A stretch of DNA of 13,507 bases, from IMG/VR virus record IMGVR_UViG_2534681663_000023, positions 1-13,507 of that record; one strand, written 5' to 3'. Made by a program: the position numbers and the translations under genes. The notes under the pieces are model-generated. The model was not told the DNA's origin. It worked only from the letters and a program-made list of their open reading frames with translations, and did not search any database. Origin of the DNA: a virus (Duplodnaviria > Heunggongvirae > Uroviricota > Caudoviricetes). This document shows positions 1 through 13,507 of the stretch, one piece after another (positions within the stretch are counted from its first letter, which is position 1; the number at the start of each line of letters is the position of its first letter).

Positions 1-213
1 TTAAATTGTGCGGACGGCTACTGAACCGCAGCCGGTATTGATGAGAGTGAAGCACTTGCCCTTTAGCTCAAAGATGTATGCGGTTGCGTCTTTCATGTCA
101 AGTAACAAAGACTTTGTTGGCAGTTCAGTGAGTATGGCTGCTGCCCCATCATCGTCAATTGAAATCGTATGTCCGACCTCAAGGGCGATCAAATTAGAAG
201 TTATTTTTTTCAT
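1..213 (-). CDS. Hypothetical small protein (70 aa), complete with stop at 1-3
   Basis: ORF track; ATG at 213-211 preceded on the minus strand by GGATGA about 8 nt upstream; stop TAA is the reverse complement of positions 1-3. No recognisable family. The overlapping plus-strand ORF 8-337 looks less protein-like. Confidence 0.35.
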   Translation of the reverse strand: MKKITSNLIALEVGHTISIDDDGAAAILTELPTKSLLLDMKDATAYIFELKGKCFTLINTGCGSVAVRTI

Positions 214-469
214 TTCATATCATCCAACTGAACACGTAAATACCTTGCAATACTACTACCTATTGTATCAATACGGAATACTTATGTATCAAATACAACT
301 TAGTTTTAAGTTCTTAAATGAGTTATTTTTTAGATAGTTGTCTATTAATGAAGCCTTTTGCGGTCAGTAAACCTATGTAAAAAAATAGATAAGTCTTTAC
401 AACACTAACCTTTGATGTAATATCAGTAAGCACTTACCAAATAAAATCAAAACACGCAGGTTGATAATT

Positions 470-859
470 ATGGCTACCAACGAAACAAAAGAAGCTAAAG
501 TAAGTCGCTACGCTGCTTACATTGACGCTTTAATCGCGATTTCTCCGAAAAGCCAGGCGACCATCGCGAAAGAAGCAGGCTATAAAAACCCTAACAATCT
601 TTCACTTATCAAGAGCGGCAAAATCCCGCTTCCGATCGACAAGGTCAGAGCGTTGGCTAAAGCATTGGATGCCGATTCGGTCCGATTGATGCTAATGGTG
701 CTGGAAGAGCGTCATCCAGAGCTGTTAGCGTTTTTTCGCGACGAAGGCACAGCCCCTCTGACTAAAGATGAAAAACTAGTTCTGGAAGCCTTCCGTCGAC
801 GTTTCGGTGACCAACGTGGTGCGTCGGAGCGGGTTGTTGAGGCAATCAAGTCGCTATGA
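470..859 (+). CDS. Putative HTH DNA-binding regulator (about 129 aa), convergent with the integrase
   Basis: ORF track 461-859 begins at TTG; the first ATG is at 470 with AGG about 9 nt upstream. The segment SQATIAKEAGYKNPNNLSLIKSGKIPLPIDKVRALAKAL reads like a helix-turn-helix of the XRE/phage regulator kind. Its 3' end overlaps the integrase 3' end by 6 bp. Confidence 0.5.
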   Translation: MATNETKEAKVSRYAAYIDALIAISPKSQATIAKEAGYKNPNNLSLIKSGKIPLPIDKVRALAKALDADSVRLMLMVLEERHPELLAFFRDEGTAPLTKDEKLVLEAFRRRFGDQRGASERVVEAIKSL

Positions 860-1957
860 GAAATTTACACGGATTAGCTCAGTAGCGAGTCGATCTCCCT
901 TGAACTTATGATCTATCTCCTCTAAATCCTGTTTCTCTACGATTGATGCGATGTACGCCGAAAAACTGTTTAAGGCGTCTCGCATCTCGTCTATATAATC
1001 GTGTCGATCGTATACTCGATCTATCCCCTCAAGACTGTGGTTCATAATTTTGCGGGATACCTCCTGACTTATGCCTAACGCGGGGAAGTAACTACGCGCA
1101 GTACGACGCAAATCTCGGGGAGTAAATGGCTCAAGCTCCATCAACTCTGGACGTTCTAAAATCCTTCTCAACGCCTGTGATATGGCCACCTTAGACATTG
1201 GCACATCCTCACCCTGTTTCTTGTTTGAAGGAACAAGCCACTGGCTGCCTTTTCCGTATTTGATCAGCTCCTCAACACATTTGCGCATTAGCGGGCTTAA
1301 TGGTAACGAGTGCTGGCGAGCCGATTTATTCCTCGTTCCTTGATTCCATAAATTATATTCGAGGTTGAATTCTGATCTTTTAGCTCGGAGCACTTCATCT
1401 GGTCGTCTGGCCGCTACAAGGCATAATCTGGCCGCCCACTTTGTACCCTCACATACGTTGAAGTAGTCCCATACATTCCAAAAGACCCAGACCTCTGCGT
1501 CGGTCAGTTTGCGCTCGCGCGGCGTGGGCTTCGCGCCACCGGCTACTCTGTTAAGCGACATATCGTTCAATGGGGATGTATCAATTAAGCCCTGAAATGC
1601 ACACCAACTGAGAAACTGCTTCATCAGCGAGAACACACGTCTGCCCTGGACGATCTTGCCCTCAAGTATTAATGGGTTCACCAGCTGGTTGACTAAAACC
1701 CTACTAATATCACTTACTTTTACTTCACAGATATGCGGCATTACATGTATCAAAATACAATGAACAGCTATTTCAGGTCGACGTCTCGTTATCAGCAAAG
1801 ATAAGCGAGTGAATAACATGAATGCGGAAGAAAACGACATATCACCGTCGAAATTGGTGGTCGACACTGCTGACAAACCGGAAGCGCGTTCGAGATACTC
1901 GATGGCTTCTCTAGAGGTGTTTTCTGCTGCGCGTGCTTTATCAAAAGTGTTTTTCAT
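854..1957 (-). CDS. int: Tyrosine-type site-specific integrase, P4-like family; true start uncertain
   Basis: C-terminal catalytic region matches the phage integrase pattern: ARRPDEVLRAKRSEFNL (box I Arg), KSARQHSLPLSP, RDLRRTARSY, NHSLEGIDRVYDRHDY (catalytic Tyr). The first ~75 residues of the ORF do not look like the usual P4-type arm-binding domain, so the real start may be internal (for example the Met of MPHICEVKV). Confidence 0.8.
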   Translation of the reverse strand: MKNTFDKARAAENTSREAIEYLERASGLSAVSTTNFDGDMSFSSAFMLFTRLSLLITRRRPEIAVHCILIHVMPHICEVKVSDISRVLVNQLVNPLILEGKIVQGRRVFSLMKQFLSWCAFQGLIDTSPLNDMSLNRVAGGAKPTPRERKLTDAEVWVFWNVWDYFNVCEGTKWAARLCLVAARRPDEVLRAKRSEFNLEYNLWNQGTRNKSARQHSLPLSPLMRKCVEELIKYGKGSQWLVPSNKKQGEDVPMSKVAISQALRRILERPELMELEPFTPRDLRRTARSYFPALGISQEVSRKIMNHSLEGIDRVYDRHDYIDEMRDALNSFSAYIASIVEKQDLEEIDHKFKGDRLATELIRVNFS

Positions 1958-2054
1958 AGTCCACTCACTGAGTGAAGCCTGTTTTTACTGTATTTATAAA
2001 CAGTATGTTAGGCCTAAGTTTTGTATGATCAACAGTAAAATAGACTGTTTTTGA

Positions 2055-2089
2055 AAATGATTCCATACCTTACAAGTATGGAATCATTT
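2055..2089. repeat. Perfect 14-bp inverted repeat AAATGATTCCATAC / GTATGGAATCATTT with 7-bp spacer, about 100 bp upstream of the integrase start
   Basis: Read directly from the sequence; both arms contain the recurring motif ATGATTCCATAC. Candidate operator or recombinase binding site. Confidence 0.7.
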
Positions 2090-2256
2090 ATATAGCTTAC
2101 GTAAATTCTGAATAAATTATGTAGACAAACCATCTTAAACGCTAAATAGTAAAAAGCGCCTAATAACGCCAACTTTGGAATGCCATCTGAGCCAGATTGA
2201 TGAGAATGATTTGTTAGAAGAAAAAGAATGATGAAGAAGATGACGATCGCTAAAGT

Positions 2257-2673
2257 TCAGCTAGAATGGAAACCTTCTGCGACTTCAGCGAAGTAGCTGA
2301 GCAACCTAGTATCTCTTGCTGGCATACGATCGTGAGCTGGAGTGACTAGCCCCATCAGCAAAAAACGCCCGCTATCCCACATGTGCTCGGTATAAACGAG
2401 ATAGTGGTTTGAGGTTCGGTTGTAGTTCTCTTGCCTTGCGTTCCAGGTAAGCTGGAAATGCAAATTGACGTGAATATGCTGGACATTAGCATCAACGGCG
2501 AACGGCGGGAAGTCAAATGGCGCATCTCGTCCAAGAAGATTAGATGGTGCGCCAGTTGATTTGTAAGTAATGAACTCGGATTTGAGCTGACTTTCTAGGT
2601 CAGGGTAAACGACAAAAGTGGGCTGAAAAAAATCATCCCACGTAACTTGACTGTATTCAGCCGTTAATGCCAT
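2257..2673 (-). CDS. YafO-like type II toxin (putative ribosome-dependent mRNA interferase), 138 aa
   Basis: Blocks recalled from E. coli YafO appear in the same order: ITYKSTG...LLGRDAPFDFP, HIHVNLH, HYLVY, ARD. The start ATG overlaps the stop of the upstream gene (ATGGCATTAA). Identification is from memory and needs a profile search. Confidence 0.5.
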   Translation of the reverse strand: MALTAEYSQVTWDDFFQPTFVVYPDLESQLKSEFITYKSTGAPSNLLGRDAPFDFPPFAVDANVQHIHVNLHFQLTWNARQENYNRTSNHYLVYTEHMWDSGRFLLMGLVTPAHDRMPARDTRLLSYFAEVAEGFHSS

Positions 2674-3212
2674 TTAGCCGCAGCCTTGTTGCCAGTCTCT
2701 AATAGATGGTTCATGGCTAAAAGGTTGACACCAGAGTCACGCACTACAGAAGTGCGTGTAATCTGATCAATCAGATTGAGATAGTTTTTGGTCGCAATAC
2801 TGACCATTTTAATAGCCTTAAAAAACGCAAACTCAACAGTGTTTTTTTCGTAAGACATGATGACGTCTTTTTCAGGTAACATCAAAACAAAAGATTCTGC
2901 GATACCGGCTACATGAATAGTTTGATTCTTAATTTCTTCCGCTACTTTGATAGCAGCAAAGAAGTCAGTGTCAGCATAATGAGCAAGTTCAGCGCGGCTT
3001 GAACGCAGTTCTTTAGCCAATTCATTGAGAGCAGCTGTAAGATCACTGATGTCGGTTTTGTTGACTCTAGCGCCCATCTCATAAACCCGTTCTACAATCG
3101 TAGGCTGACACGCAACCGCTTTGGGTTGCGGCTGGATACTGGCAAGAACCAGTGCCACTGCTGCCTGCAAATGCTGGATTTTAAATTTCACGATAGACTC
3201 CATAATCGTCAT
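2664..3212 (-). CDS. Hypothetical protein (182 aa), translationally coupled upstream partner of the YafO-like toxin; possible atypical antitoxin
   Basis: ORF track; 8-nt overlap with the toxin start; no recognisable domain by eye; much larger than YafN or Phd-type antitoxins. Confidence 0.45.
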   Translation of the reverse strand: MTIMESIVKFKIQHLQAAVALVLASIQPQPKAVACQPTIVERVYEMGARVNKTDISDLTAALNELAKELRSSRAELAHYADTDFFAAIKVAEEIKNQTIHVAGIAESFVLMLPEKDVIMSYEKNTVEFAFFKAIKMVSIATKNYLNLIDQITRTSVVRDSGVNLLAMNHLLETGNKAAAKWH

Positions 3213-3293
3213 TTCTCGACGAAGCGTAGCATTCTACTACTGAACTTAACTATAAGCTAAAAAAAGTTGGTTGCATATGCGACTTGATAGCAA

Positions 3294-3320
3294 AAAGGGG
3301 CCGAAGCCCCTTTGGATTTT
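3294..3320. terminator. Bidirectional rho-independent terminator hairpin (GGGGC-CGAA-GCCCC) flanked by A/T runs
   Basis: On the minus strand the stem is followed by TTTTTG, which would terminate the tRNA-Asn transcript before the toxin module; on the plus strand it is followed by TTTGGATTTTG. Confidence 0.5.
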
Positions 3321-3387
3321 GCGCTGAAAAAAGTGTTGCTACGATGCTTAGAAGCAATGGTTAAAAAACGTCTGCCGTGTCTATCAC

Positions 3388-3462
3388 AGCGCTGAACGGT
3401 CTGGCGACATTTGCGGAGTCTTTCGTTCGGACGGTGGTGGCGAATCCAAACCGTTCAGCGCT
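3388..3462. repeat. Perfect 13-bp inverted repeat AGCGCTGAACGGT / ACCGTTCAGCGCT enclosing 49 bp, immediately 3' of the tRNA
   Basis: Read directly from the sequence. Lies between the tRNA 3' end (3467) and the terminator; could be a processing or structural element, or a small repeat element. Confidence 0.6.
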
Positions 3463-3466
3463 ATGT

Positions 3467-3541
3467 TGGCGATGGTGGGTGGACTCGAACCACCGACCAG
3501 TTGATTAACAGTCAACCGCTCTACCACTGAGCTACACCATC
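3467..3541 (-). tRNA. tRNA-Asn (anticodon GTT), 75 nt with encoded CCA
   Basis: Manual fold of the minus strand: acceptor GATGGTG/CACCATC, D-arm GCTC-AGTGGTA-GAGC, anticodon stem GTTGA/TCAAC with loop CTGTTAA (U33, GTT, A37), variable TGGTC, T-arm GGTGG-TTCGAGT-CCACC, discriminator G, CCA. Confidence 0.85.
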
Positions 3542-3704
3542 ATTTTCGCGGCGGTACTAGCTTATGGACAACCAGGCAGCCAGAAACTTTCCCGTAACTT
3601 GCACTTTACGTTAGTGCCAGACGAGGTATGTGGCTCGCTCATATGAGCGAAGATCTCGAATCTTTCTCGGTGGTTGATTGCCGTTAGATTCTTCGATCTT
3701 ATTG

Positions 3705-3719
3705 GATGTATGGAATCAT
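3705..3719. repeat. 15-bp direct repeat GATGTATGGAATCAT, copy 1 of 2 (second copy at 4725-4739)
   Basis: Exact 15-bp identity read from the sequence. Its reverse complement ATGATTCCATACATC carries the recurring motif. Copy 1 sits within the local palindrome ATGTATG-GAAT-CATACAT. Confidence 0.7.
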
Positions 3720-3790
3720 ACATGTTGTGAAGCCAGGGGCAATAAAGGCAACAATGTTTTCACTAGAGGGTTAATTAATCCTGCTTTCAC

Positions 3791-3900
3791 AACGTTGAGA
3801 TCACTGAACCGATTAATGTTCAACCCAACATATTGATCAGTCGCTACAGCTATGTGGAATCGCCTGTATGATTTTAAGAAAAATCAGTGATCTCAACGTT
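3791..3900. repeat. Perfect 17-bp inverted repeat AACGTTGAGATCACTGA / TCAGTGATCTCAACGTT separated by 76 bp, in an ORF-free region
   Basis: Read directly from the sequence; arms at 3791-3807 and 3884-3900. Candidate structured RNA or miniature inverted-repeat element. Confidence 0.65.
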
Positions 3901-4266
3901 ATGTGCTGACTAACCAAGTCAGCCGGGTTACGTCGCCGCTTTTAACCCAAGTATAAACGACATAAGTAATGGAAATGACGTAACAGAATGGACGGTCAGC
4001 TGAAACCGGGATGGGGGAATGGAATGATGAAACCAACCGCCCATTCTGTTACTTCATTGAATGGGGCATGGATGGTGCAATATGCCCTATTCTGCGTTCT
4101 GCAATCACACTCGCTCAGTGTGTCCCATTTTGGTGACGAGGCTGGAAACTGACCTCGCTGGTGTTTGGCTTCTTAGGCTACTGCCAGGTATGCATCTTCG
4201 TTTGCAGTTATATTTAACGTTCAAACAGTCGCATCTCAACGAAAACAAAGTGATCTTATACATATT

Positions 4267-4290
4267 AGATAAGTAAGTAAATACTTATCT
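4267..4290. terminator. Possible weak hairpin (AGATAAGTA / TACTTATCT, 6-nt loop) at the end of the small-ORF operon
   Basis: 9-bp AT-rich stem overlapping the stop of the 101-aa ORF; no strong U-run, so terminator function is uncertain. Confidence 0.25.
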
Positions 4291-4590
4291 ATCTGTGATG
4301 CGTTTAGTTGCTATCTTTTTGATCAGGCTCCCCTTTTGTTCCGAAGTTCTCATGATGATGGCGGTAAAACGCTTCGCTTGAATAGTGATAGTTTCGTTTT
4401 CCTTGAGTTCGCCGTAATGCGTCTCTAACAGGGACCCCAGACGCCACAGACCGTCGTCTATGCGTTTATGGCTGGCGAATCTGATCAGCAGTAGCTTTAC
4501 GATTAACTGACCAATGTAAAAGGCAAATCCGAAGCCGGCCGCCACAAGGTAGGTTGCCAGCCACCAGTCGAAGGAAGTCAAATTGCTCAT
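4285..4590 (-). CDS. Hypothetical small membrane protein (101 aa), last gene of the coupled small-ORF chain
   Basis: ORF track; N-terminal hydrophobic stretch WWLATYLVAAGFGFAFYIGQLIVKLLLI; its ATG overlaps the stop of the upstream 50-aa ORF (AAATGAGC). Confidence 0.45.
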   Translation of the reverse strand: MSNLTSFDWWLATYLVAAGFGFAFYIGQLIVKLLLIRFASHKRIDDGLWRLGSLLETHYGELKENETITIQAKRFTAIIMRTSEQKGSLIKKIATKRITDR

Positions 4591-4739
4591 TTTCGCACTC
4601 CCGTCTCGTGAACAACCCGATACACACGCTTACCGACACGAAGTGTTTTGGTTTGCAGTTCCTGCTGGACCAGGGCGCGGCAGATTGCGAGGCCGAGGCC
4701 CACGCCACCAGTAAAAGATAAAATGATGTATGGAATCAT
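4587..4739 (-). CDS. Small ORF (50 aa, below track cut-off): MIPYIILSFTGGVGLGLAICRALVQQELQTKTLRVGKRVYRVVHETGVRK; small membrane protein or relic of a sensor-kinase 3' end
   Basis: Translated by hand. Start ATG overlaps the stop of the 70-aa ORF (TGATG); stop overlaps the start of the 101-aa ORF. The GC-rich segment encodes GVGLGLAICRALV, reminiscent of the histidine-kinase G2 box. The start codon lies inside repeat copy 2. Confidence 0.35.
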   Translation of the reverse strand: MIPYIILSFTGGVGLGLAICRALVQQELQTKTLRVGKRVYRVVHETGVRK

Positions 4740-4951
4740 CAGTGCGCCCCCGCCTCAGTCAATTGCTGCAACAACAAATAACCTTTTTCAGTCAGTTGAT
4801 AGTTCTCAATACATCCCTTTGGAGAAACGTTGGCGACAAGATTCATGCGCTCCAGTTTGGCTCTGGTCTTCGGCTTCCAGTTGGCGTAGAACTCCTTCCA
4901 CTTGCTGATTTCACGCAGGGTTTCCTTCTCTCGTTTACTTAACATGCTCAT
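4739..4951 (-). CDS. Hypothetical small soluble protein (70 aa), possibly winged-helix-like
   Basis: ORF track; overlaps the 3' end of the 59-aa ORF and is coupled to the 50-aa ORF. Charged, helical-looking sequence (LSKREKETLREI ... LTEKGYLLLQQL). Confidence 0.45.
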   Translation of the reverse strand: MSMLSKREKETLREISKWKEFYANWKPKTRAKLERMNLVANVSPKGCIENYQLTEKGYLLLQQLTEAGAH

Positions 4952-5114
4952 CCTTAATCTCCTTCAGTGTGTCCGTGATATCTACTATGCGATAAATACG
5001 ACCTCGCCTTTGCATGACACCGGCTTTTACGTAATCGTGGATACAGCTGGACATAACCAGACTTCCGATAACAATGCCGACGACTAAAAATACAAACATC
5101 CAGCCGAGCATCAT
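4935..5114 (-). CDS. Small ORF (59 aa, below track cut-off): MMLGWMFVFLVVGIVIGSLVMSSCIHDYVKAGVMQRRGRIYRIVDITDTLKEIKDEHVK; predicted single-pass membrane peptide
   Basis: Translated by hand. Its ATG (5114-5112) overlaps the TGA (5113-5111) that ends the reconstructed native ligase frame (ATGA overlap). Confidence 0.4.
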   Translation of the reverse strand: MMLGWMFVFLVVGIVIGSLVMSSCIHDYVKAGVMQRRGRIYRIVDITDTLKEIKDEHVK

Positions 5115-5156
5115 TCTTTATCTCCAATACGATCTTCGGTATCTCGAAGACATTTA
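5111..5156 (-). other. Displaced native 3' end of the ligase gene (encodes ...CLRDTEDRLGDKE-stop), separated from the gene body by the transposon
   Basis: Joining the sequence right of the right-hand ATTTA to the sequence left of the left-hand ATTTA keeps the ligase frame open for 13 more codons and ends at TGA 5113-5111. Confidence 0.55.
5152..5156. repeat. Target-site duplication ATTTA, left copy (right copy at 10797-10801)
   Basis: Identical 5-bp sequence immediately outside each terminal inverted repeat; 5-bp duplications are typical of Tn3-family transposition. Confidence 0.8.
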
Positions 5157-5194
5157 GGGGAGCCCGCAGAATTCGGAAAAAATCGTACGCTAAG
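5157..5194 (+). repeat. Transposon terminal inverted repeat, tnpA-proximal (38 bp); contains the tnpA stop codon
   Basis: GGGG...ACGCTAAG architecture typical of Tn3-family ends; tnpA stop at 5190-5192 lies within it. Confidence 0.85.
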
Positions 5195-8156
5195 GTTTTC
5201 CGGGCATCCGTAAGGGCCGAAACTTCCCGTCTTCCAGTCTGCGGCTCTGCCGCCAGACGTAATCGCCGGTTAGGTTGATGTGCTCCCAGCCCAGCGGCGA
5301 CAGGAATTGCAGCAGCTCGCCGTCCACCGGCTTGCCGGCCTCGACCAACCCCTGGGTGGCGCGTTCCAGGTACACCGTGTTCCACAGCACGATAGCCGCC
5401 GTCACCAGGTTGAGGCCGCTGGCCCGGTAGCGCTGCTGCTCGAAGCTCCGATCCCTGATTTCCCCAAGGCGGTTGAAGAACACCGCCCTGGCCAGCGAGT
5501 TGCGCGCCTCACCTTTGTTCAGGCCGGCATGCACGCGGCGGCGCAGTTCAACACTTTGCAGCCAGTCCAGGATGAACAGCGTGCGCTCGATCCGGCCCAG
5601 CTCGCGCAGGGCCACGGCCAGTCCGTTCTGGCGCGGGTAGCTGCCGAGCTTGCGCAGCATCAGCGAGGCGGTGACGGTGCCCTGCTTGATCGAGCTGGCC
5701 AGGCGCAGGATGTCGTCCCAGTGGGCACGCACGTGCTTGATGTTCAGGGTGCCGCCGATCAGCGGGCGCAACGTCGGGTAGGCTTGCACGCCCTGCGGCA
5801 CGTACAGCTTGGTTTCGCCGAGGTCGCGGATGCGCGGCGCGAAGCGGAAGCCTAGCAGGTGCATCAGGGCAAAGACGTGATCGGTGAAGCCGGCCGTGTC
5901 GGTGTAGTGCTCCTCGATCCGCAGGTCGGACTCGTGGTACAGCAGGCCGTCGAGCACATAGGTGGAATCGCGGACGCCGACATTCACCACGCGGGTGCTG
6001 AACGGCGCGTACTGGTCGGAGATATGGGTATAGAACAGCCGTCCCGGCTCGCTACCGTACTTCGGGTTGACGTGCCCGGTGCTCTCGCCCCGGCCACCCG
6101 CGCGGAAGCGCTGGCCATCGGAGGATGAGGTCGTGCCGTCGCCCCAGTGGGCGGCAAAGGCGTGGCGATACTGGTGGTTGACCAGCTCGGCCAAGGCCGC
6201 CGAATAGGTTTCGTCGCGGATGTGCCAGGCTTGCAGCCAGGACAGCTTGGCGTAGGTCAGGCCGGGGCTCGACTCGGCCATCTTGGTCAGCCCGAGGTTG
6301 ATCGCATCACCGAGGATTGCGGACAGCAGCAACGTCCTGTCTTTGGCCTCGGCCCCGTCCTTCAAGTGGGTGAAGTGGCGGCTGAAGCCCGTCCAGTCGT
6401 CCACGTCCATCAGCAGTTCGGTGATCTTGATGCGCGGCAGTAACTGGCTGGTTTGGTCGATCAGCGCCTGCGCCCGATCCGGCACCGCCGCATCCAGCGG
6501 GGGGATTTTCAGCCCTGACTCGGTGAGGATGGCATCGGGCAGCTCGTTGTCCTTGGCCAGGCGGGTGACGGTGGCCAACTGCTCGTCCAGCAGCTGCAAA
6601 CGCTCTTCCAGGTACTGGTCGCTGTTCGGGTTGATCGCCAGGGGCAGGGCCTGCTCGCGCTTGAGTGCGGCGAACTTCTCGGCCGGCAGCAGGTAGTCGT
6701 CGAAGTCGCGGAACTGCCGCGAGCCCTTGACCCAGATGTCGCCGGAGCGCAGGGCGTTCTTCAGCTCGGACAGGGCGCAGATTTCGTAGAATTTCCGGTC
6801 GAGGCCTTCCGGGGTGATCACCAGCGGCTTCCAGCGCGGCTTGATGAAGGCCGTGGGTGCATCGGCCGGCACCTTGCGCAGGTTGTCGGCGTTCATCTCA
6901 CGCAGGGTCTGCACGGCTGCCAGCACGCCTTGCGCGGCCGGCGCGGCGCGCAGTTCCAGCACCTCCAGCAAGGCCGGCGTGTAACGGCGCAGGGTGGCGA
7001 AGTTCTCGCCGACCAGGTGCAGGTGGTCGAAGCCTTCCGGCCGGGCCAGCAGCTCGGCCTCGCTGACGCTCTCGGTGAACTCGTCCCAGGGAATCACCGC
7101 CTCGATGGCGGCATAGGGGTCGCTGCCGCTTTCCTTCGCTTCCAGCAGCGCCTGGCCGATCCTGGAGTACAGGCGCACCTTGTCGTTGATCGCCTTGCCC
7201 TGCTTCTGGAACTGCTGCTGATGCTTGTGCTTCGCGCCGCTGAACAGCTTGACCAGGATGCGGTCATGCAGATCGACCAGCTCATCGATCACGGTCGCGG
7301 TGCTCTCCAGCACCACGGCGGCCAGGGTCGCGTAGCGGCGCTGCGGCTCGAACTTACCGAGGGCTTTGGGCGTCATCTGCCCACCCTCGCGGGCCAGCTT
7401 GAGCAGGCGGTTCTGGTGGATGTGCCGGCCCAGGCCTTCGGGCAAGTCCACCAACTGAAATGTCTTCAGCCGCTCGATGTGTTCCAGCATGTGCCGAGAG
7501 TTGGGTTTCAGCGGTGCCTGGCGCAGCCAGGTCAACCAGGTGATGCTGCTGCCGGCCTTGAGCTTCAACAGCTCGTCCAGCTTGGCCCGATGCGAGTCCG
7601 TGAGTGGTTCGACCAGGGCGCGGTAGACCCGCCGATTGGCTCGCGCAATGGCTTCCGAGCAGGCCCGGTCAATCACGCTCAGCGCCGGCAGGATGCGTCG
7701 TTTCTGCCGTAGGCTCTCCAGGGCCTGACCGGCCAGCAGCAAGCCTTTGTCGGTCTGCTGGGCCAGCTCGGTTAGCTCGCGCACCAGGGCGCGGAAGTCG
7801 GACAGGCCGAACGGGGCCAGTTGCAGGTAGGTGCGCAGTTCCTGGGCATGCTCGCGACGGGTCACGTCGCGCTCGCCGTACTTTGCCCAGCTCGCCGGCT
7901 CGGCCTGGACTTGCTTCGCCACCCACAGGATGACCGGCTCGGGCAGCTCGCTGTCGGTTCCCAGCGCGTAACCGGGGTAGCGCAGCAGGCAGAGCTGCAC
8001 GGCGAAGCCGAGGCGGTTGGCGTCGCCGCGTCGCTGGCGGATCAGCGACAGGTCGGAGTCGTTGAAGGTGTAGTAGCGGATCAGGTCATCCTGGCTTTCC
8101 GGCAGCGCAAGCAGGGTGTCCCGCTCCGTGGCCGAGAGGATCAAGCGACGCGGCAT
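5190..8156 (-). CDS. tnpA: Tn3-family transposase TnpA (988 aa)
   Basis: Length and sequence ([44 protein letters not shown]...) match Tn21/Tn501-type TnpA as recalled; very GC-rich relative to its surroundings; terminates inside the terminal repeat. Confidence 0.95.
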
Positions 8157-8159
8157 GTG

Positions 8160-8720
8160 TCAGTCGTCCGTGCGGAGGTACTGGTAGAGGGTTTCCCGGC
8201 TGATGTTGAACTCGCGGGCAAGCTGCGCCTTGGGCTCGCCGGCCGTCGCTCGCTGCCGCAGGGTAGCAGCCTGCTCATCGGACAGGGCTTTCTTGCGGCC
8301 CCGGTACGCGCCACGCTGCTTGGCCAAGGCGATGCCCTCACGCTGCCGCTCGCGGATCAGGGCGCGCTCGAACTCAGCGAAGGCCCCCATCACCGACAGC
8401 ATCAGGTTGGCCATCGGCGAGTCCTCGCCAGTGAACACCAGGCCCTCCTTCAGGAACTCGATGCGCACGCCGCGCTGAGTCAGCTTCTGTACCAAGCGAC
8501 GCAGGTCATCGAGGTTGCGGGCCAGCCGATCCATGCTGTGCACCACCACTGTATCGCCTTCGCGGACGAAGCTCAGCAGCGCTTCGAGCTGGGGGCGCTG
8601 GGTGTCCTTGCCCGATGCCTTGTCGGTGAACACCTTGCTCACCTGGGTTTGTTCCAGCTGGCGTTCCGGGTTCTGGTCAAAGCTGCTGACCCGGACGTAG
8701 CCGATGCGGTGCCCCTGCAC
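8160..8720 (-). CDS. tnpR: Serine resolvase TnpR (186 aa)
   Basis: N-terminal serine-recombinase motif (IGYVRVSSFDQNPERQ), C-terminal HTH (ISRETLYQYLR); sits directly upstream of tnpA in the same orientation, as in the Tn21 subgroup. Confidence 0.95.
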   Translation of the reverse strand: MQGHRIGYVRVSSFDQNPERQLEQTQVSKVFTDKASGKDTQRPQLEALLSFVREGDTVVVHSMDRLARNLDDLRRLVQKLTQRGVRIEFLKEGLVFTGEDSPMANLMLSVMGAFAEFERALIRERQREGIALAKQRGAYRGRKKALSDEQAATLRQRATAGEPKAQLAREFNISRETLYQYLRTDD

Positions 8721-8724
8721 GATG

Positions 8725-8900
8725 TCTCCTTGGTTGAAGGCGGCTTAAGTGCACTTTCTGTTCCGTTGTGCCTCAAAGCCCATTTCTGTCAGGCTGAAAT
8801 CTATAACCTTCGCGGGCATGTGTCAAAAAATGGGAAAGCAGACTCTATTCTGACGAAGCGGCGCGGCCCTGCCTGACATCAAGTTAGGGTATAGCCTAGA
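8725..8900. promoter_or_regulatory. Putative res (resolution) site and tnpR promoter region
   Basis: Lies immediately upstream of tnpR and contains several TGTCA/TGACA half-site-like repeats (TGTCAGGCTGAAAT..., CATGTGTCA, CTGCCTGACATC). Exact subsite boundaries not determined. Confidence 0.5.
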
Positions 8901-9029
8901 TTGACATGCGCGATGCAACCCTTAACTTGCTTGCACCTATCGTTTCCATGCTAGCTTTATCGTAACGCTCAAGAAATTGGGCTTAATGCCGAAAACAATA
9001 AAATAAAACAGCCAACCCTTGAGGTTCTT

Positions 9030-10607
9030 ATGCGCCAGAATTTACCAGTGACGGGTCGAAACTTAGAACTCCCAAAAGATGCCAATATTCTTTCGACTAC
9101 CTCCCCTCAAAGCCATATCACGTACGTTAATCCTGACTTCATTAAAATCAGTGGTTTCACTGAGGAAGAACTATTAGGCCAGCCTCACAACATCGTAAGA
9201 CACCCAGATATGCCGCCTGCTGCATTTGAGCATATGTGGAGTACATTAAAATCTGGCCGCTCATGGATGGGGCTAGTAAAAAATCGCTGTAAAAATGGCG
9301 ACCACTATTGGGTAAGTGCTTATGTAACGCCAATAGCTAAGAATGGTTCGATTGTTGAATACCAGTCTGTAAGGACCAAGCCTGAACCTGAGCAGGTTTT
9401 GGCTGCGGAAAAATTATATGCTCAATTGAGAAGCGGGAAGGCCGCGAGGCCGAAATTGGCTGCTAGCTTTTCCGTGAAAATACTCTTGCTCATATGGGGT
9501 AGTATTATATCAAGCGCAATGGCTGCCGGCATGCTTACTGATACATCAATAAGCAGCTTATTGTTAGCCACTTTAATGTCAGGAAGCTTAAGCTCTGTTA
9601 GTGTTTTGGCTATTCTCTCTCCTCTTGGAAGACTGGTTGAAAGAGCCAGGAATATTTCCAATAACCCATTAAGTCAATCCCTCTACACTGGGCGCACCGA
9701 TGAGTTTGGCCAAATAGAGTTTGCTTTACGAATGATGCAAGCTGAAACAGGCGCCATAGTAGGTCGCATAGGTGATGCATCAAATCGGCTTAGCGAACAC
9801 ACCCGAGGCCTACTAAAGGATATTGAGTCAAGCAATGTACTTACAGTTGAGCAGCAGGCAGAGACAGATCAAATAGCAACGGCAGTAAACCAAATGGTGG
9901 CAAGCATTCAAGAGGTTGCGAGCAATGCACAGCATGCTGCAGATGCGGCCGGAAGAGCAGACACTGAGACGGCATCTGGCCAGCGTCTGGTAGCCCACAC
10001 AAGCCAGTCAATCACTGCCCTTGAAGGTGAAATTAGGCAAGCCACTCAGGTTATTCATGAGCTTGAAGGTCAAAGTAACGAGATATCAAAAGTTCTTGAC
10101 GTTATACGAGGGATCGCCGAGCAAACGAATTTGTTGGCACTCAACGCAGCAATTGAGGCCGCGCGTGCTGGTGAGCAGGGGCGTGGTTTTGCTGTTGTCG
10201 CCGATGAGGTTCGCAGTCTTGCTGCTCGCACACAGCAATCGACAACGGATATTCAAAGCATGATCAGCGCTCTACAAGAGCGAGCGCAATCCGCTGTTAC
10301 AGTCATGGAGCAAAGTAGTCGGCAAGCGCACACGAGTGTAGCTCACGCAGAGGAAGCAGCTACAGCTCTTGATGGAATTGGCCAACGCGTTAACGAAATT
10401 ACCGACATGAACGCGCAAATAGCGACTGCGGTCGAGCAGCAGGGAGCAGTAAGTGAAGACATAAACCGCAGTATTATCAATATACGCGATGCTGCTGATA
10501 CCAATGTACAGACCGGGCAGAATAATTTGCAAAGTGCGAAATCTGTCGCTCAGTTAACTAGCGCTCTGAGCGAACTGGCAAAACAGTTTTGGGAAAAACG
10601 AGGATAA
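9030..10607 (+). CDS. aer: Aer-like aerotaxis receptor (N-terminal PAS, membrane hairpin, methyl-accepting chemotaxis signalling domain), 525 aa; transposon passenger
   Basis: N-terminus closely resembles E. coli Aer PAS ([68 protein letters not shown]); hydrophobic hairpin near residues 150-195; conserved signalling core ([32 protein letters not shown]). Confidence 0.85.
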
Positions 10608-10626
10608 CGCTTTTCAGTATCTCGAC

Positions 10627-10661
10627 AGGGATAACTTACTTTACCATCGGTTATCCCTTTT
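10627..10661 (+). terminator. Rho-independent terminator after the chemoreceptor gene
   Basis: Hairpin AGGGATAAC-(14 nt)-GTTATCCCT followed by TTTT, about 20 bp after the stop codon. Confidence 0.5.
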
Positions 10662-10740
10662 AGCCGCACAAATTTTAGCCATGGCTTTTCAGGAAGTCAG
10701 GGCTATCAGAATGGCCTTAGAAAGCCTAGTCAAAGAGCTG

Positions 10741-12078
10741 TCACGAGAACACCGTTAGCTTAGCGTACGATTTTTTCCGAATTCTGCGGTTCCCCCATTT
10801 AGGCCACTTCAGACGTGGATGACGCAAGCTACCATCTGGCGTTTTCTCATGGCAGTGAACCTCAACGATGCGTCCACGATACTTCTCCTGATTGTTCCAG
10901 ATTTCATCCAGGTATTTATGCTTGATACCGCTGGCACGAACGATGACGCCGTTCTCCAGACGAATCACTATCTTGCCTAGCGTATGCGCAAATCCAGAAT
11001 CCGGATCGCCAGGCTCGAAGTCGATGATTTCACCGTCTTCTGAATCCTCGTCTTTCAGCTTCCACCAGCTGCGGGTACGTTTGAACTCGTAAACTGAATC
11101 CGGATCTTTGCCCATCTCTCCCTCTTCATTCTCGTCCAGTCGCTTCATGAAACGTTCGATGAAATCTTCGTGGCTATGGATGATGTAGAACGGATGAAGG
11201 TGGATATCTTGCGCATAATCTTCCACGCAAGTGTTGCGGAACAACGCCACCAGCATAGCCAGGCGCTCTTTCAGCTTCATACCGGTCTTCAGGTACTCTT
11301 TGCTTTTTGCTTGAGCACGCCACTCCGGTAAGAAGAAATCGAAAATGTGGTAAACGGCACCAATGGCTTTCACGTTCTTCTTACGAAGCGCCGACACTGA
11401 CTGGTTGAATGTACCTGCAGTGCCCTCTCCATCGAAGAAGATGTGATTGAAGCCGGAGAGTCTGCCCCGCTCCAGCATGGCTGGTTTAAGGTGATCGAGT
11501 GACGTAATCGGATTGCCGGTGCGCGTCAGGAAATTGACCTCACCCTCGTCCACGATGACTTCGCAGATAACCCGGAGACCATCGAGTTTGAGACTGCCGA
11601 TCATTGGCCACTTGGCCTTTGGATTTGGTTTAAATGGGTATTTGTCGCCTTTCTCCTTGTACGGAGACGCCAGCTGTACCTCAAACTTCGGAATTGGGTT
11701 TTCGAACACCTTGTTGCACAGGCTGATGCCGACACCGGCTTTCGGATCTTTCAGCAGGAAGCGACGAAACACGTCCTGCCCGTCAGCGCACATCGAGGCA
11801 ACGAGTGATTCGACAGCAGCAATAGCGATGTTCCCGGTCAGTTCGCGCGCTGCCAGCTTCTCCAGCAGATCTACTACCTTCTGGTCGCTGGGTACGGAAG
11901 TATCGAGTGGCTCGGCCACTTTGTACTTCTTCACACCGAATCGAATGAATGGATTGAGCATTAGCGAGACCATGCTCTGTTCAAATTCATCCAGATTGGC
12001 CAGCGCCTCTTTCTTGGCGTTGGTTCCCATCGTTTTAATAGCATCCAGCTTGTGCTTTAGGGCGATCAGTTTTTCCAT
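10741..12078 (-). CDS. T4-type ATP-dependent DNA ligase; 3' end interrupted by the transposon (last 18 codons of this ORF are read from the ATTTA duplication and terminal repeat)
   Basis: Nucleotidyltransferase motifs in order: I KLDGLR, III FFDGEG, IIIa YHIFDF, IV EGEMGKD, V WWKLK, VI LRHPRL. N-terminal region parallels T4 ligase as recalled (LTGNIAIAAV, ISLCNKVFENPIP, LASPYKEKG). GGAGG lies about 10 nt upstream of the ATG. Confidence 0.85.
   Translation of the reverse strand: MEKLIALKHKLDAIKTMGTNAKKEALANLDEFEQSMVSLMLNPFIRFGVKKYKVAEPLDTSVPSDQKVVDLLEKLAARELTGNIAIAAVESLVASMCADGQDVFRRFLLKDPKAGVGISLCNKVFENPIPKFEVQLASPYKEKGDKYPFKPNPKAKWPMIGSLKLDGLRVICEVIVDEGEVNFLTRTGNPITSLDHLKPAMLERGRLSGFNHIFFDGEGTAGTFNQSVSALRKKNVKAIGAVYHIFDFFLPEWRAQAKSKEYLKTGMKLKERLAMLVALFRNTCVEDYAQDIHLHPFYIIHSHEDFIERFMKRLDENEEGEMGKDPDSVYEFKRTRSWWKLKDEDSEDGEIIDFEPGDPDSGFAHTLGKIVIRLENGVIVRASGIKHKYLDEIWNNQEKYRGRIVEVHCHEKTPDGSLRHPRLKWPKWGNRRIRKKSYAKLTVFS
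10759..10796 (-). repeat. Transposon terminal inverted repeat, passenger-proximal (38 bp)
   Basis: Reverse complement matches the tnpA-proximal repeat at 35 of 38 positions; followed immediately by ATTTA. Confidence 0.85.
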
Positions 12079-12112
12079 TAGTGTTTAACCTCCATCGGTC
12101 GCTCGGGAGTTT

Positions 12113-12589
12113 TCATGTGTTTTCTTTGGTTGCTTCTTCAATGAGTGCCGCGTACACGTCAGTGACCGGCGCCAGTGAATCGGTGGGCTTGGTTTCGGAT
12201 TTAGCAGGTTCTGTTTTCTTCGTGCGATGAATAAGACTGTCAATTGTCGCGGTGTTTCGCTTCCGGGGGAGCGTTCTGGCATGGTCGTTTTGCTCTTCCA
12301 CTTCTTTGATAAGTGAAGACATATCGATGAAGTAGAGCTGTTCGTCTTTGCGGATCTCTTCGACCATCATTTTCAGTGCCTGACATTTACCAGCAGCAAT
12401 AGCCGCAGCGCAGGACTGGAACGATGTAGCCGGGAGACGTTTTTCTTTATAGGCGAGGATCGTGTGTTGGCAGACTGTATAGCTGCAATGAGCCTCATGG
12501 CCGTTGAGCTTCACTTCCGGGCAGCGCAGCGAATAACCGTTGTTTCCGGAGATAGACGGGATTTTCGACAAATCTGTTCTTGTGGACAT
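12113..12589 (-). CDS. Hypothetical Cys/His-rich protein (158 aa), possible zinc-binding; directly upstream of the ligase
   Basis: ORF track; cluster RCPEVKLNGHEAHCSYTVCQH...CAAAIAAGKC; 34-bp gap to the ligase start, same strand. No family recognised. Confidence 0.45.
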   Translation of the reverse strand: MSTRTDLSKIPSISGNNGYSLRCPEVKLNGHEAHCSYTVCQHTILAYKEKRLPATSFQSCAAAIAAGKCQALKMMVEEIRKDEQLYFIDMSSLIKEVEEQNDHARTLPRKRNTATIDSLIHRTKKTEPAKSETKPTDSLAPVTDVYAALIEEATKENT

Positions 12590-12636
12590 GCTTCTAACCG
12601 TAATCTTGTACTTACTTATTAATCGCAGTTTAAAGA

Positions 12637-12653
12637 AGCCCCACGAGGGGGCT
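12637..12653. other. Short GC hairpin (AGCCCC-ACGAG-GGGGCT) between the upstream gene and the 158-aa gene
   Basis: Read from the sequence; no convincing U-run on the minus strand, so it may be an attenuator or structural element rather than a terminator. Confidence 0.25.
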
Positions 12654-12670
12654 AAATGTTTTATCGAGGC

Positions 12671-13069
12671 TTACCAGGTCGCCCAGCCAGTCATTTTGTC
12701 CTGAGCAGCTTCGAACCGGTATGGGTCCAGTAAATCGTTGGTACGATGAACGGCGTAGGATTTGGCTTCTTGTTTAATCATGGGTAATTCGTTGGCCAGA
12801 CGAGCCACTTGCCCTGCAAAACTGGCGAGTACTCCGTCACATGCCTGACCCGCGTCGACAATGATGCGCACCAGGTCTAAGTCGCTGCGGCACATATCGC
12901 AGATAATGCCGTATTCCACCTCACGAATGCGCTCAACGGCTTTTTTGATATCGCCACTGACCACCAATTCCAGCAAACCAGGTGGAGTTGTCAGATCTGT
13001 TACGCGCTCGGTAACTTCAGACTGTTCGACAATACTCAGGAACGCCGCGATGGACGGGTCATCCGCCAC
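12671..13069 (-). CDS. Hypothetical protein, probably the C-terminal part of a larger gene truncated by the IS3-family insertion
   Basis: The annotated start is GTG with no clear RBS; the frame stays open for 19 more codons upstream (ERFEDIVDATLRTLKVRAG...) right up to the IS boundary at 13127. No family recognised. Confidence 0.4.
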   Translation of the reverse strand: MADDPSIAAFLSIVEQSEVTERVTDLTTPPGLLELVVSGDIKKAVERIREVEYGIICDMCRSDLDLVRIIVDAGQACDGVLASFAGQVARLANELPMIKQEAKSYAVHRTNDLLDPYRFEAAQDKMTGWATW

Positions 13070-13126
13070 ACCAGCTCTGACTTTGAGCGTGCGAAGAGTT
13101 GCGTCGACAATATCCTCAAACCGTTC

Positions 13127-13507
13127 TGAACCGCCCCGGAAATCCTGGAGACTAAACTCCCTGAGAAAGAGGTAAACAGGATGACTAAAAATACTCGTTT
13201 TTCCCCCGAAGTCCGTCAGCGGGCGATTCGTATGGTTCTGGAAAGTCAGGATGAATATGACTCACAGTGGGCGGCAATTTGTTCCATTGCCCCAAAGATT
13301 GGCTGTACGCCGGAGACTCTGCGTGTCTGGGTTCGCCAGCATGAGCGGGATACCGGGGGCGGTGATGGTGGGCTCACCAGCGCTGAACGTCAGCGTCTGA
13401 AAGAGCTGGAACGTGAAAATCGTGAACTGCGCCGCAGTAACGATATCCTTCGCCAGGCTTCCGCTTATTTTGCGAAGGCGGAGTTCGACCGCCTCTGGAA
13501 AAAATGA
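13127..13507 (+). mobile_element. IS3-family insertion sequence (IS629/IS1203-like), left end; continues beyond the window
   Basis: Terminal sequence TGAACCGCCCCGGAAATCCTGGAG... followed about 55 bp later by an OrfA-type gene; matches the IS629-like left end as recalled. Confidence 0.8.
13181..13507 (+). CDS. IS3-family transposase OrfA (108 aa, HTH plus leucine zipper)
   Basis: [23 protein letters not shown]...[34 protein letters not shown] is the typical IS3 OrfA; ends at an A6 run before TGA, consistent with the programmed -1 frameshift site into OrfB, which lies outside the window. Confidence 0.9.

Follow-up and report, generated by a model that had tools for sequence, protein, structure and literature searches.

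The segment at positions 8721-9029 of the window (the whole stretch of 13,507 nucleotides that was analysed, IMG/VR virus record IMGVR_UViG_2534681663_000023) is the res-mcp intergenic region, that is the cis-acting hub, of a complete and canonical Tn1722, the 5.6-kb core of Tn1721. Taking all results jointly, it is very probable that the segment combines this Tn1722 hub with a res I site at which arms have been swapped by TnpR, the join of a high-GC module and a low-GC module, and an mcp cassette provided with a FliA-type promoter. The backbone is canonical, long characterised and already known, and what is mildly new is confined to where the mcp cassette begins and ends, the apparent FliA promoter that it carries, and the fact that unrelated transposons repeatedly have it as cargo. 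No new biology is needed to account for the segment: the segment, res-orfI, comes from a transposon that is among the most widespread of the resistance-associated ones, and the exchange of arms at res I is a textbook way in which mosaic Tn21-subgroup elements arise.

Identity and boundaries of the element

A complete transposon of the Tn3 family (Tn21/Tn501 subgroup), 5,640 bp long, occupies positions 5157-10796 of the window (Table 1). Its terminal inverted repeats have the length (about 38 bp) and the GGGG start that characterise the subgroup. TnpA has the corresponding size of about 990 aa and scores 1287 bits against the NCBIfam model transpos_Tn3 (NF033527; cut-off 500), and tnpR lies directly upstream of tnpA in the same orientation, with conserved res blocks (8787-8909) upstream of tnpR. 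The initial annotation had described a Tn21-subgroup transposon with a res site and a passenger chemoreceptor, and this description is borne out by the inverted repeats, the Tn3 transposase, the serine resolvase, the res blocks and the MCP. When the two flanks were joined with a single copy of ATTTA, the resulting 700 bp were 100% identical to uninterrupted E. coli plasmids (~113 kb). Since the empty site exists elsewhere at 100% identity, the element is a clean simple insertion; the host DNA around it is that of an SSU5-like phage-plasmid.

Searches with region 8600-9150 returned sequences that are 100% identical and contiguous in 25 of 25 records among the matches listed; 2893 records were at least 99% identical over at least part of the region, and 498 covered at least 80% of it. 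Full-length matches include pFBAOT6, a documented carrier of a Tn1721-based transposon. The segment 8721-9029 lies within this region and thus aligns contiguously, at 100%, with the Tn1722/Tn1721 backbone, the very outcome that the initial annotation had named as refuting its reading. On the left side, the window is 99.9% identical to locus L003 over 5155-8897 and to locus L009 over 5155-8975; the TnpA and TnpR of these two loci (WP_001138014.1, WP_001161490.1) bear the PGAP label TnAs1-family transposase.

Tn1722 is the minor transposon of Tn1721 and has the layout IR-tnpA-tnpR-res-mcp-IR (PMC7096625, citing Allmeier et al. 1992, X61367). The element of the window shares with the 5.6-kb Tn1722 its gene order, 38-bp inverted repeats and 5-bp duplication, and no difference was found in the region examined. 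Unlike Tn1721, it stands alone, without the tet half, its left flank being phage-plasmid DNA rather than tetR/tetA. At gathering thresholds, Rfam reported only a tRNA (3470-3541) and no structured RNA in the intergenic region.

Table 1. Features of the Tn1722 element and of its res-mcp region (coordinates refer to the window)
Feature	Position	Strand	Remarks
Target duplication ATTTA	5152..5156 and 10797..10801	both flanks	5 bp, perfect
38-bp terminal inverted repeat, tnpA end	5157..5194	+	92% complementary to 10759-10796
tnpA, Tn3-family DDE transposase	5190..8156	-	988 aa; Pfam DDE_Tnp_Tn3 (PF01526) 3.4e-155 and DUF4158
tnpR, serine resolvase	8160..8720	-	186 aa, GTG start; Pfam Resolvase 2.9e-39 and HTH_7
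tnpR leader	8721..8786	-	holds the best GC change-point (8721-8744)
res subsite III (approximate)	8787..8812	.	conserved TGTCAGGNTGAAATCTATNACC; adjoins tnpR
sigma-70-like tnpR promoter (candidate)	8798..8826	-	-35 TTGACA (8826-8821), 17-nt spacer, -10 TAGATT (8803-8798)
res subsite II (approximate)	8821..8855	.	TGTCAA...ATTCTGACG dyad, conserved block
Variable spacer between res II and res I	8856..8872	.	lineage-specific; GC-rich in the Tn1721 type
res subsite I	8873..8909	.	26-bp dyad core TCAAGTTAGGGTA|TAGCCTAGATTGA at 8879-8904
Central AT of res I, putative resolvase crossover and module boundary	8891..8892	.	overlap of the recombinant intervals
Arm-specific spacer	8910..8968	.	59 bp; not common to L094 or the m2 arms
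sigma-28 (FliA)-type promoter candidate	8969..8995	+	TCAA-N15-GCCGAAAA; also left edge of the cassette
Shine-Dalgarno GAGG	9021..9024	+	5 nt before the mcp ATG; conserved in L011 and L094
mcp (orfI), Aer-like PAS-HAMP-MCP chemoreceptor	9030..10607	+	525 aa; Pfam MCPsignal 6.9e-44, PAS_3, HAMP
3' untranslated part of the cassette	10608..10744	+	common to the Tn7-like context; homology to L094 ends at 10744
38-bp terminal inverted repeat, mcp end	10759..10796	-	92% complementary to 5157-5194

Anatomy of the res site

The res region of the window was aligned with that of eight relatives whose tnpR is 79-89% identical, namely two of Tn21 type (L092, L001), two of TnAs3 type (L004, L008), a mer-carrying (L006) and a cad/lspA-carrying element (L007), a 91%-identical one (L005) and an IR-res element (L011). 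Three dyad blocks are conserved in the diverged relatives (~8787-8812, 8821-8855 and 8873-8909), and the subsite limits of Table 1, drawn from conservation and dyad symmetry, are approximate. Site III is known to adjoin tnpR (PMC7157771) and crossover to occur in the middle of site I (PMC13367494, PMC7157771).

A sigma-70 scan gave a tnpR promoter candidate with 10 of 12 matches, which overlaps res II and res III; both of its hexamers are kept wherever a relative has tnpR, and in L011, which is without tnpR, they are degraded. A promoter placed inside res II/III is what would be expected if tnpR regulates itself.

Counted on the sequence, 10 of the 13 pairs of the res I dyad are symmetric, and the dyad is centred between A8891 and T8892. 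Its left side (8873-8892) is nearly invariant, with at most 4 positions differing between lineages. On the right, TTGACATGCG (8901-8910) forms the outermost part of the half-site: arms with urf2M/integron, mer, cad and a different mcp have retained a GACA/GACG core at its position, with TGAC in all but L007 and L011. Since this core is kept across unrelated cargo, it is a feature of the resolvase site. An inverted repeat at 8880-8889 / 8920-8929 was also considered; by our own estimate, chance would give about 0.6 such pairs in this stretch, the repeat is not conserved in the second type of mcp arm (m2, defined below), and it is probably fortuitous.

Compared with the res of Tn21 and Tn501 (tnpR ~84% identical), the order of the subsites (III next to tnpR, I distal), the half-site cores and the 26-bp dyad with central AT are the same. 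The differences are an unrelated res II-res I spacer, an extra block of ~45 bp in the tnpR leader (~8741-8785), which was found only in the Tn1721-type lineage and in L005, and the right half-site with everything beyond it (a urf2M/integron/mer arm, against the mcp arm here). The res sites of Tn21 and Tn1721 are interchangeable in nature, as both reciprocal hybrids exist.

Limits of the passenger cassette and promoter candidates of mcp

The window MCP belongs to a 100%-identity cluster (P0001) of 2579 member sequences, and pFBAOT6, L002 and L008 carry it as WP_001323889.1. In L094 (91% aa identity) the gene immediately follows tnsC/tniQ/tnsE-type genes belonging to a Tn7-like element, in DNA whose composition matches it (45-46% GC), and in L099/L100 (77% aa) it lies downstream of tnpA in a Tn3-family element with an RHH/PIN toxin-antitoxin pair, while L095 and L096 are Tn1722 siblings with an m2 arm. 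In L098 and L102 (81% and 76% aa) it is preceded by GGDEF-EAL genes, in apparently chromosomal settings, and no chromosomal donor closer than 76-81% aa was found among the relatives searched.

L094 aligns with 8971-10744 of the window at 89.8% nucleotide identity, and the edges of this homology are sharp (~88% identity over 8969-10744, near background outside). The passenger cassette can thus be delimited at about 1.78 kb (~8969-10744) and would comprise the sigma-28-type promoter candidate, mcp and the 3' untranslated part; it is separated from res I by the 59-bp spacer and from the inverted repeat by 14 bp. As a functional-looking res I half-site opens the arm on the right-hand side of 8892, 8892|8893 cannot be the entry point of mcp, and the passenger DNA proper starts ~77 bp farther to the right, near 8969. 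BLAST of 8893-9029 against plasmids returned only a full-length class and a class cut at 8975, the latter being a known Tn1722-based blaKPC-2 unit transposon.

At the left edge of the cassette, TCAAGAAATTGGGCTTAATGCCGAAAA (8969-8995) matches the sigma-28 consensus TAAA-N15-GCCGATAA at 10 of 12 positions with the correct spacing. Alone, this motif is not significant (2 matches window-wide, 0.9 expected). Four mobile contexts, among them the Tn7-like copy, the m2 arms and the Tn3-family element with toxin-antitoxin pair, retain the motif while nearby sequence diverges; its variants are TAAAGAAAC...GCCGAAAA in L094, TAAAGAAAC...GCCGATAT in the m2 arms and TTAAGAAAC...GCCGATTA in L099. A score of at least 10/12 was reached by 25 of the 78 regions upstream of homologues, against 24 of 1600 shuffled sequences and none of 80 intragenic controls, and the matches lie mostly 55-71 bp before the ATG (61 bp in the window). 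Those chromosome-like homologues that are closest (L098, L102, L012-L026) lack the motif upstream of the gene.

The candidate resembles class 3 flagellar chemoreceptor promoters such as those of E. coli tsr and aer (PMC4183435) by its TCAA/TAAA -35, its 15-nt spacing, its GCCGA(A/T)AA element and its location upstream of an MCP gene. Among the FliA-bound promoters of E. coli (PMC4183435), tsr (TAAA-N15-GCCGAAAA) has an identical -10 and modA (TCAA-N15-GCCGATAT) an identical -35. Unlike these promoters, the candidate is borne by a transposon and its surrounding sequence is not homologous to theirs. No link between Tn1721 and FliA appeared among the 15 best-ranked of 1,990 literature matches.

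It is unlikely, although compatible with the preferred joint reading, that TTGACA at 8901-8906 serves instead as the -35 of a sigma-70 promoter of mcp, possibly repressed by TnpR at res I. The hexamer is a perfect -35 and Tn3-family res sites do carry promoters (PMC7157771), but its best -10 candidate, TAACTT located 16 nt downstream, matches at only 3 of 6 positions and does not qualify in the sigma-70 scan (at least 4/6, 16-18 nt downstream), which listed a second sigma-70-like pair, CTGACA-18-TAGATT, at 8873-8902. The hexamer is moreover not more frequent in the window than by chance (5 occurrences, 7.1 expected), the GACA/GACG core kept in the mer, cad and urf2M arms fits a resolvase half-site and not an mcp promoter, and the Tn7-like copy keeps the sigma-28 motif without having the TTGACA region. 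The initial annotation had pointed to TTGACATGCG as promoter-like: TTGACA is indeed present there, as part of the res I half-site and without an acceptable -10, so that its assignment as a promoter is doubtful. The sigma-28-type motif at 8969-8995 appears to be the better mcp promoter candidate, and we infer from the sequence comparisons that FliA drives mcp.

Exchange of arms at res I

Joints were mapped by ungapped comparison across the res I dyad. Homology to Tn21/Tn501-type elements breaks at 8892|8893, where the dyad has its central AT (8891-8892). A module boundary had been placed near 8880-8900 in the initial annotation, and the alignment with Tn21/Tn1721-type res regions that it had proposed, carried out on relatives, confirms this boundary and gives 8892|8893 as the exact point of divergence. 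A BLAST end-point at 8897 for Tn1721/Tn21 hybrids was discarded as the artefact of a 1-nt gap, ungapped divergence starting at 8893.

The left modules were classified as A (Tn1721 type: window, L003, L009, L090), B (Tn21 type: L092, L001, L002), C (TnAs3 type: L008) and D (IR-res: L011, L091), and the right arms as m1 (Tn1721 mcp), t (Tn21 urf2M) and m2 (an mcp arm 82% identical in nucleotides). The combinations A+m1, A+t, B+t, B+m1, C+m1, D+m1 and D+m2 were seen. Four further left modules have the same joint, with m1 (L093) or m2 (L095, L096, L097), so that at least 8 left modules and 3 right arms meet at res I. Both reciprocal products of Tn21 and Tn1721 exist: in L003, which joins a Tn1721 left module to the Tn21 arm, divergence begins at 8893, and in L001/L002, where a Tn21 left module is joined to the mcp arm, the last difference is at 8879. 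L008 has tnpA/tnpR only 75.9% identical to those of the window and is 99.95% identical over 8873-10797, with one mismatch (8882). L091 is of L011 type on the left through 8890 and has the window-type arm thereafter, L011 and L091 differing from 8896 onwards.

Most single comparisons bound the crossover to 10-13 bp only, the left half of res I being nearly invariant across lineages, and the 2-bp resolution rests on the combination of two independent recombinants. The first bound is 8880-8892, modules A and B differing last at 8879 and arms m1 and t first at 8893 (L003 and L001/L002, compared with L092). The second, from L091, is 8891-8895, modules D and A differing at 8890 and arms m1 and m2 first at 8896. 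As these intervals overlap at 8891-8892, the crossover would be located at the central AT. Positions 8891-8892 are the coordinate to be used for calling Tn1721 hybrids.

TnpR would resolve cointegrates by crossover at this central AT, and, res I being common to related transposons, the same reaction between elements would swap arms composed of the res I right half, the cargo and the inverted repeat. Homology to Tn21/Tn501-type elements would stop at 8892|8893 because whole arms have been swapped there. Exchange between transposons at the AT of site I has been described for Tn5501/TnTsp1/Tn4662a (PMC7157771), and this mechanism explains the Tn1721/Tn21 hybrid transposons already found in the literature, such as Tn7714 (PMC11332342; see also PMC12955435). 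In these systems as here, homology breaks at the central AT of site I and whole passenger arms are exchanged; the arm differs, being here a chemoreceptor and not a toxin-antitoxin pair or resistance genes. The partners also include here IR-res elements devoid of tnpR and tnpA (L011, L091, L093), which are TIME-like; the inverted repeat of L011 had no match in the supplements of the TIME244 paper.

We infer that resolvase made the joints, and 8892|8893 would consequently be an arm-exchange point of a known process. The initial annotation had read the junction as the place where the passenger was acquired, a role that the start of the cassette near 8969 excludes. A production of the arm swaps by RecA-dependent homologous recombination within the conserved 20 bp of the res I left half, and not by resolvase, appears quite improbable: a short stretch of identity is available there (8873-8892, with at most 4 differing positions between lineages), and most single comparisons are compatible with a joint anywhere in 8880-8892, but such a tract is very short for RecA. 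Far longer tracts are offered by tnpR and tnpA (76-91% identity), and yet 11 of the 11 arm-exchange loci (L001-L003, L008, L011, L091, L093, L095-L097 and the native Tn21-type L092) are joined at res I. The L091 joint (8891-8895) in addition spans the centre of the dyad, both reciprocal products exist, and a mechanism that exchanges arms at the site I AT is documented (PMC7157771), all of which argue for resolvase.

Composition step

The G + C content is 66.0% in tnpA, 65.6% in tnpR and 47.5% in mcp (GC3 of 0.88, 0.86 and 0.41, respectively). This step from 66% to 47% is real, a single change-point being better than none by 53.7 log-likelihood units, and its best position is after 8721-8744, that is at the tnpR start codon and leader. 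A change-point set at 8892 or 8900 gains 45.0 or 44.7 units, about 9 units worse. The composition switch reported at 8880-8900 in the initial annotation therefore reflects a genuine contrast placed at the wrong position, and its res-like side (8721-8892) is not GC-rich, with an intermediate value of 50%. What looks like a switch at 8880-8900 is due to a patch of 60% GC in the 8840-8899 windows, which takes in the lineage-specific res II-res I spacer, a spacer that is AT-rich in other lineages. Because the res DNA, which is non-coding, already has an intermediate GC value, the step coincides with the end of the tnpR coding sequence.

The composition step would arise from the union of two parts, a transposition module of high GC and a passenger of low GC. 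That it might express only the functional AT-richness of regulatory DNA, without separate origins of the two sides, is suggested by the change-point at the tnpR coding/non-coding boundary and by the constrained sequence of res sites; this explanation is very improbable as a whole, since the low GC runs on through 1.6 kb of mcp coding sequence (GC3 of 0.41 against 0.86-0.88), the mcp cassette is also found in the Tn7-like context of 45-46% GC, and the step is repeated in L011. For the mcp gene it is contradicted, and it fairly describes no more than 8721-8892.

When Tn1721-derived resistance regions are annotated, the GC step, the crossover and the cassette edge should be kept apart as three boundaries, and the same caution covers the Tn1722-based blaKPC-2 platforms that break at 8975.

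Integron ends and insertions in res

The initial annotation had proposed a check for integron or Tn402-like ends; the 25-bp IRi of class 1 integrons/Tn402 (TGTCGTTTTCAGAAGACGGCTGCAC), searched for over the whole window with up to 3 mismatches allowed, gave no match. Exact copies were found in the relatives L003, L004, L005, L011 and L090. Copies follow the equivalent of window position 8854 in L004, where homology to the window stops, and that of 8885 in L005, and one lies ~350 bp beyond res I in L003. Res hunters thus do target this region in relatives, and Tn5053 inserts in the res I-res II region of Tn1721 (PMC7765201). Even so, it is extremely unlikely that the switch at 8880-8900 is the scar left in res by an incoming mobile element, whether an integron, a Tn402-like res hunter or the passenger. 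The IRi search of the window was negative at the tolerance given above, and the canonical backbone runs on without interruption through 8600-9150. Rightward of 8892, the arm opens with a proper res I right half-site, which an insertion would not supply, and DNA common to non-Tn3 contexts begins only at ~8969.

Recurrence of the cassette

It can be proposed, tentatively and at somewhat less than an even chance, that the Aer-like mcp is a self-contained cassette which, itself or through close relatives, has been recruited repeatedly by unrelated backbones and shuffled by resolvase among at least 8 left modules. If so, a transposon-borne energy-taxis receptor would plug directly into the flagellar regulon of the host, and the mcp cassette would itself be under selection instead of being a passive hitch-hiker of tet(A). 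Why transposons repeatedly carry an Aer-like receptor that seems to have a FliA promoter is a modest question. The backbones concerned are of the Tn21 subgroup (through the res I arm), Tn7-like, and of the Tn3 family with a toxin-antitoxin pair.

Non-autonomous elements related to Tn1722

Three relatives (L011, 3710-3885; L091, ~7245-7420; L093, 401-580) have a Tn21-subgroup terminal inverted repeat (IR) at a distance of 9 bp from res III. The order in all three is IR, res III, res II and res I, followed by an mcp arm (res I right half-site, cargo and IR), and both tnpR and tnpA are missing. All three are non-autonomous elements of the form IR-res-cargo and recall TIME244 (PMC13367494). In L011 and L091, the terminal repeat IRi of class 1 integrons is found 245 bp outside this IR.

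The res II/III segment, which includes the putative tnpR promoter, was compared between L011 (3757-3825) and the window (8787-8855). Both putative promoter hexamers have decayed in L011, which lacks tnpR (TGTCAA to CGTCAG and AATCTA to GCCCTA), and the resolvase half-site cores were kept despite this decay, a pattern that fits a loss of selection on the putative tnpR promoter only. The tnpR leader of the Tn1721 lineage and of L005, a 91%-identical relative, contains a block of ~45 bp (window ~8741-8785) that relatives of the Tn21, TnAs3, mer and cad types lack; the edge of this block coincides with the second-ranked GC change-point (8744).

The mcp arm and its chemoreceptor

The L091 arm (7534-9109), on a P. 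aeruginosa megaplasmid, is 98.9% identical, and its mcp reading frame is interrupted, leaving ORFs of 102 and 402 aa. Its mcp promoter region carries 2 substitutions, both inside the sigma-28 motif (TCAA to TAAA; GCCGAAAA to GCCGAATA).

The res I left half-site core, CAAGTTAGGG (window 8880-8889), is matched at 9/10 positions by an inverted copy, CCTTAACTTG (8920-8929), located 30 bp downstream within the arm-specific spacer. As ~0.6 such pairs are expected and the pair is not conserved in m2 arms (82% nucleotide identity), it is probably due to chance; CCTTAACTTG may instead be what is left of an earlier res I half-site.

The Tn1722 chemoreceptor also has close relatives (77-91% aa) among the cargo of unrelated mobile elements (L094, 1-6729; L099/L100, 77-6578; L095/L096).

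Phage-plasmid host of the transposon

The DNA flanking the transposon (window 1-5156 and 10797-13507) is an SSU5-like phage-plasmid: window 3428-5155 is 90.5% identical to Salmonella phage SSU5, and the empty insertion site occurs at 100% identity in ~113-kb IncFIB plasmids of E. coli. Between the insertion point and the 3' end of the DNA ligase gene of the phage-plasmid there are ~46 bp, and as a result the ligase ORF now runs into the transposon IR.

Chemoreceptor-carrying elements and features of the phage-plasmid DNA
Feature	Window position	Strand	Remark
Tn7-like element			Chemoreceptor relative immediately behind tnsC/tniQ/tnsE-type genes
P. aeruginosa Tn3-family element			Chemoreceptor relative as cargo; RHH/PIN toxin-antitoxin pair also present
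Tn1722 siblings			Chemoreceptor relative as cargo
DNA ligase ORF (phage-plasmid)	10741-12078	minus	Extends into transposon IR
tRNA	3470-3541	minus
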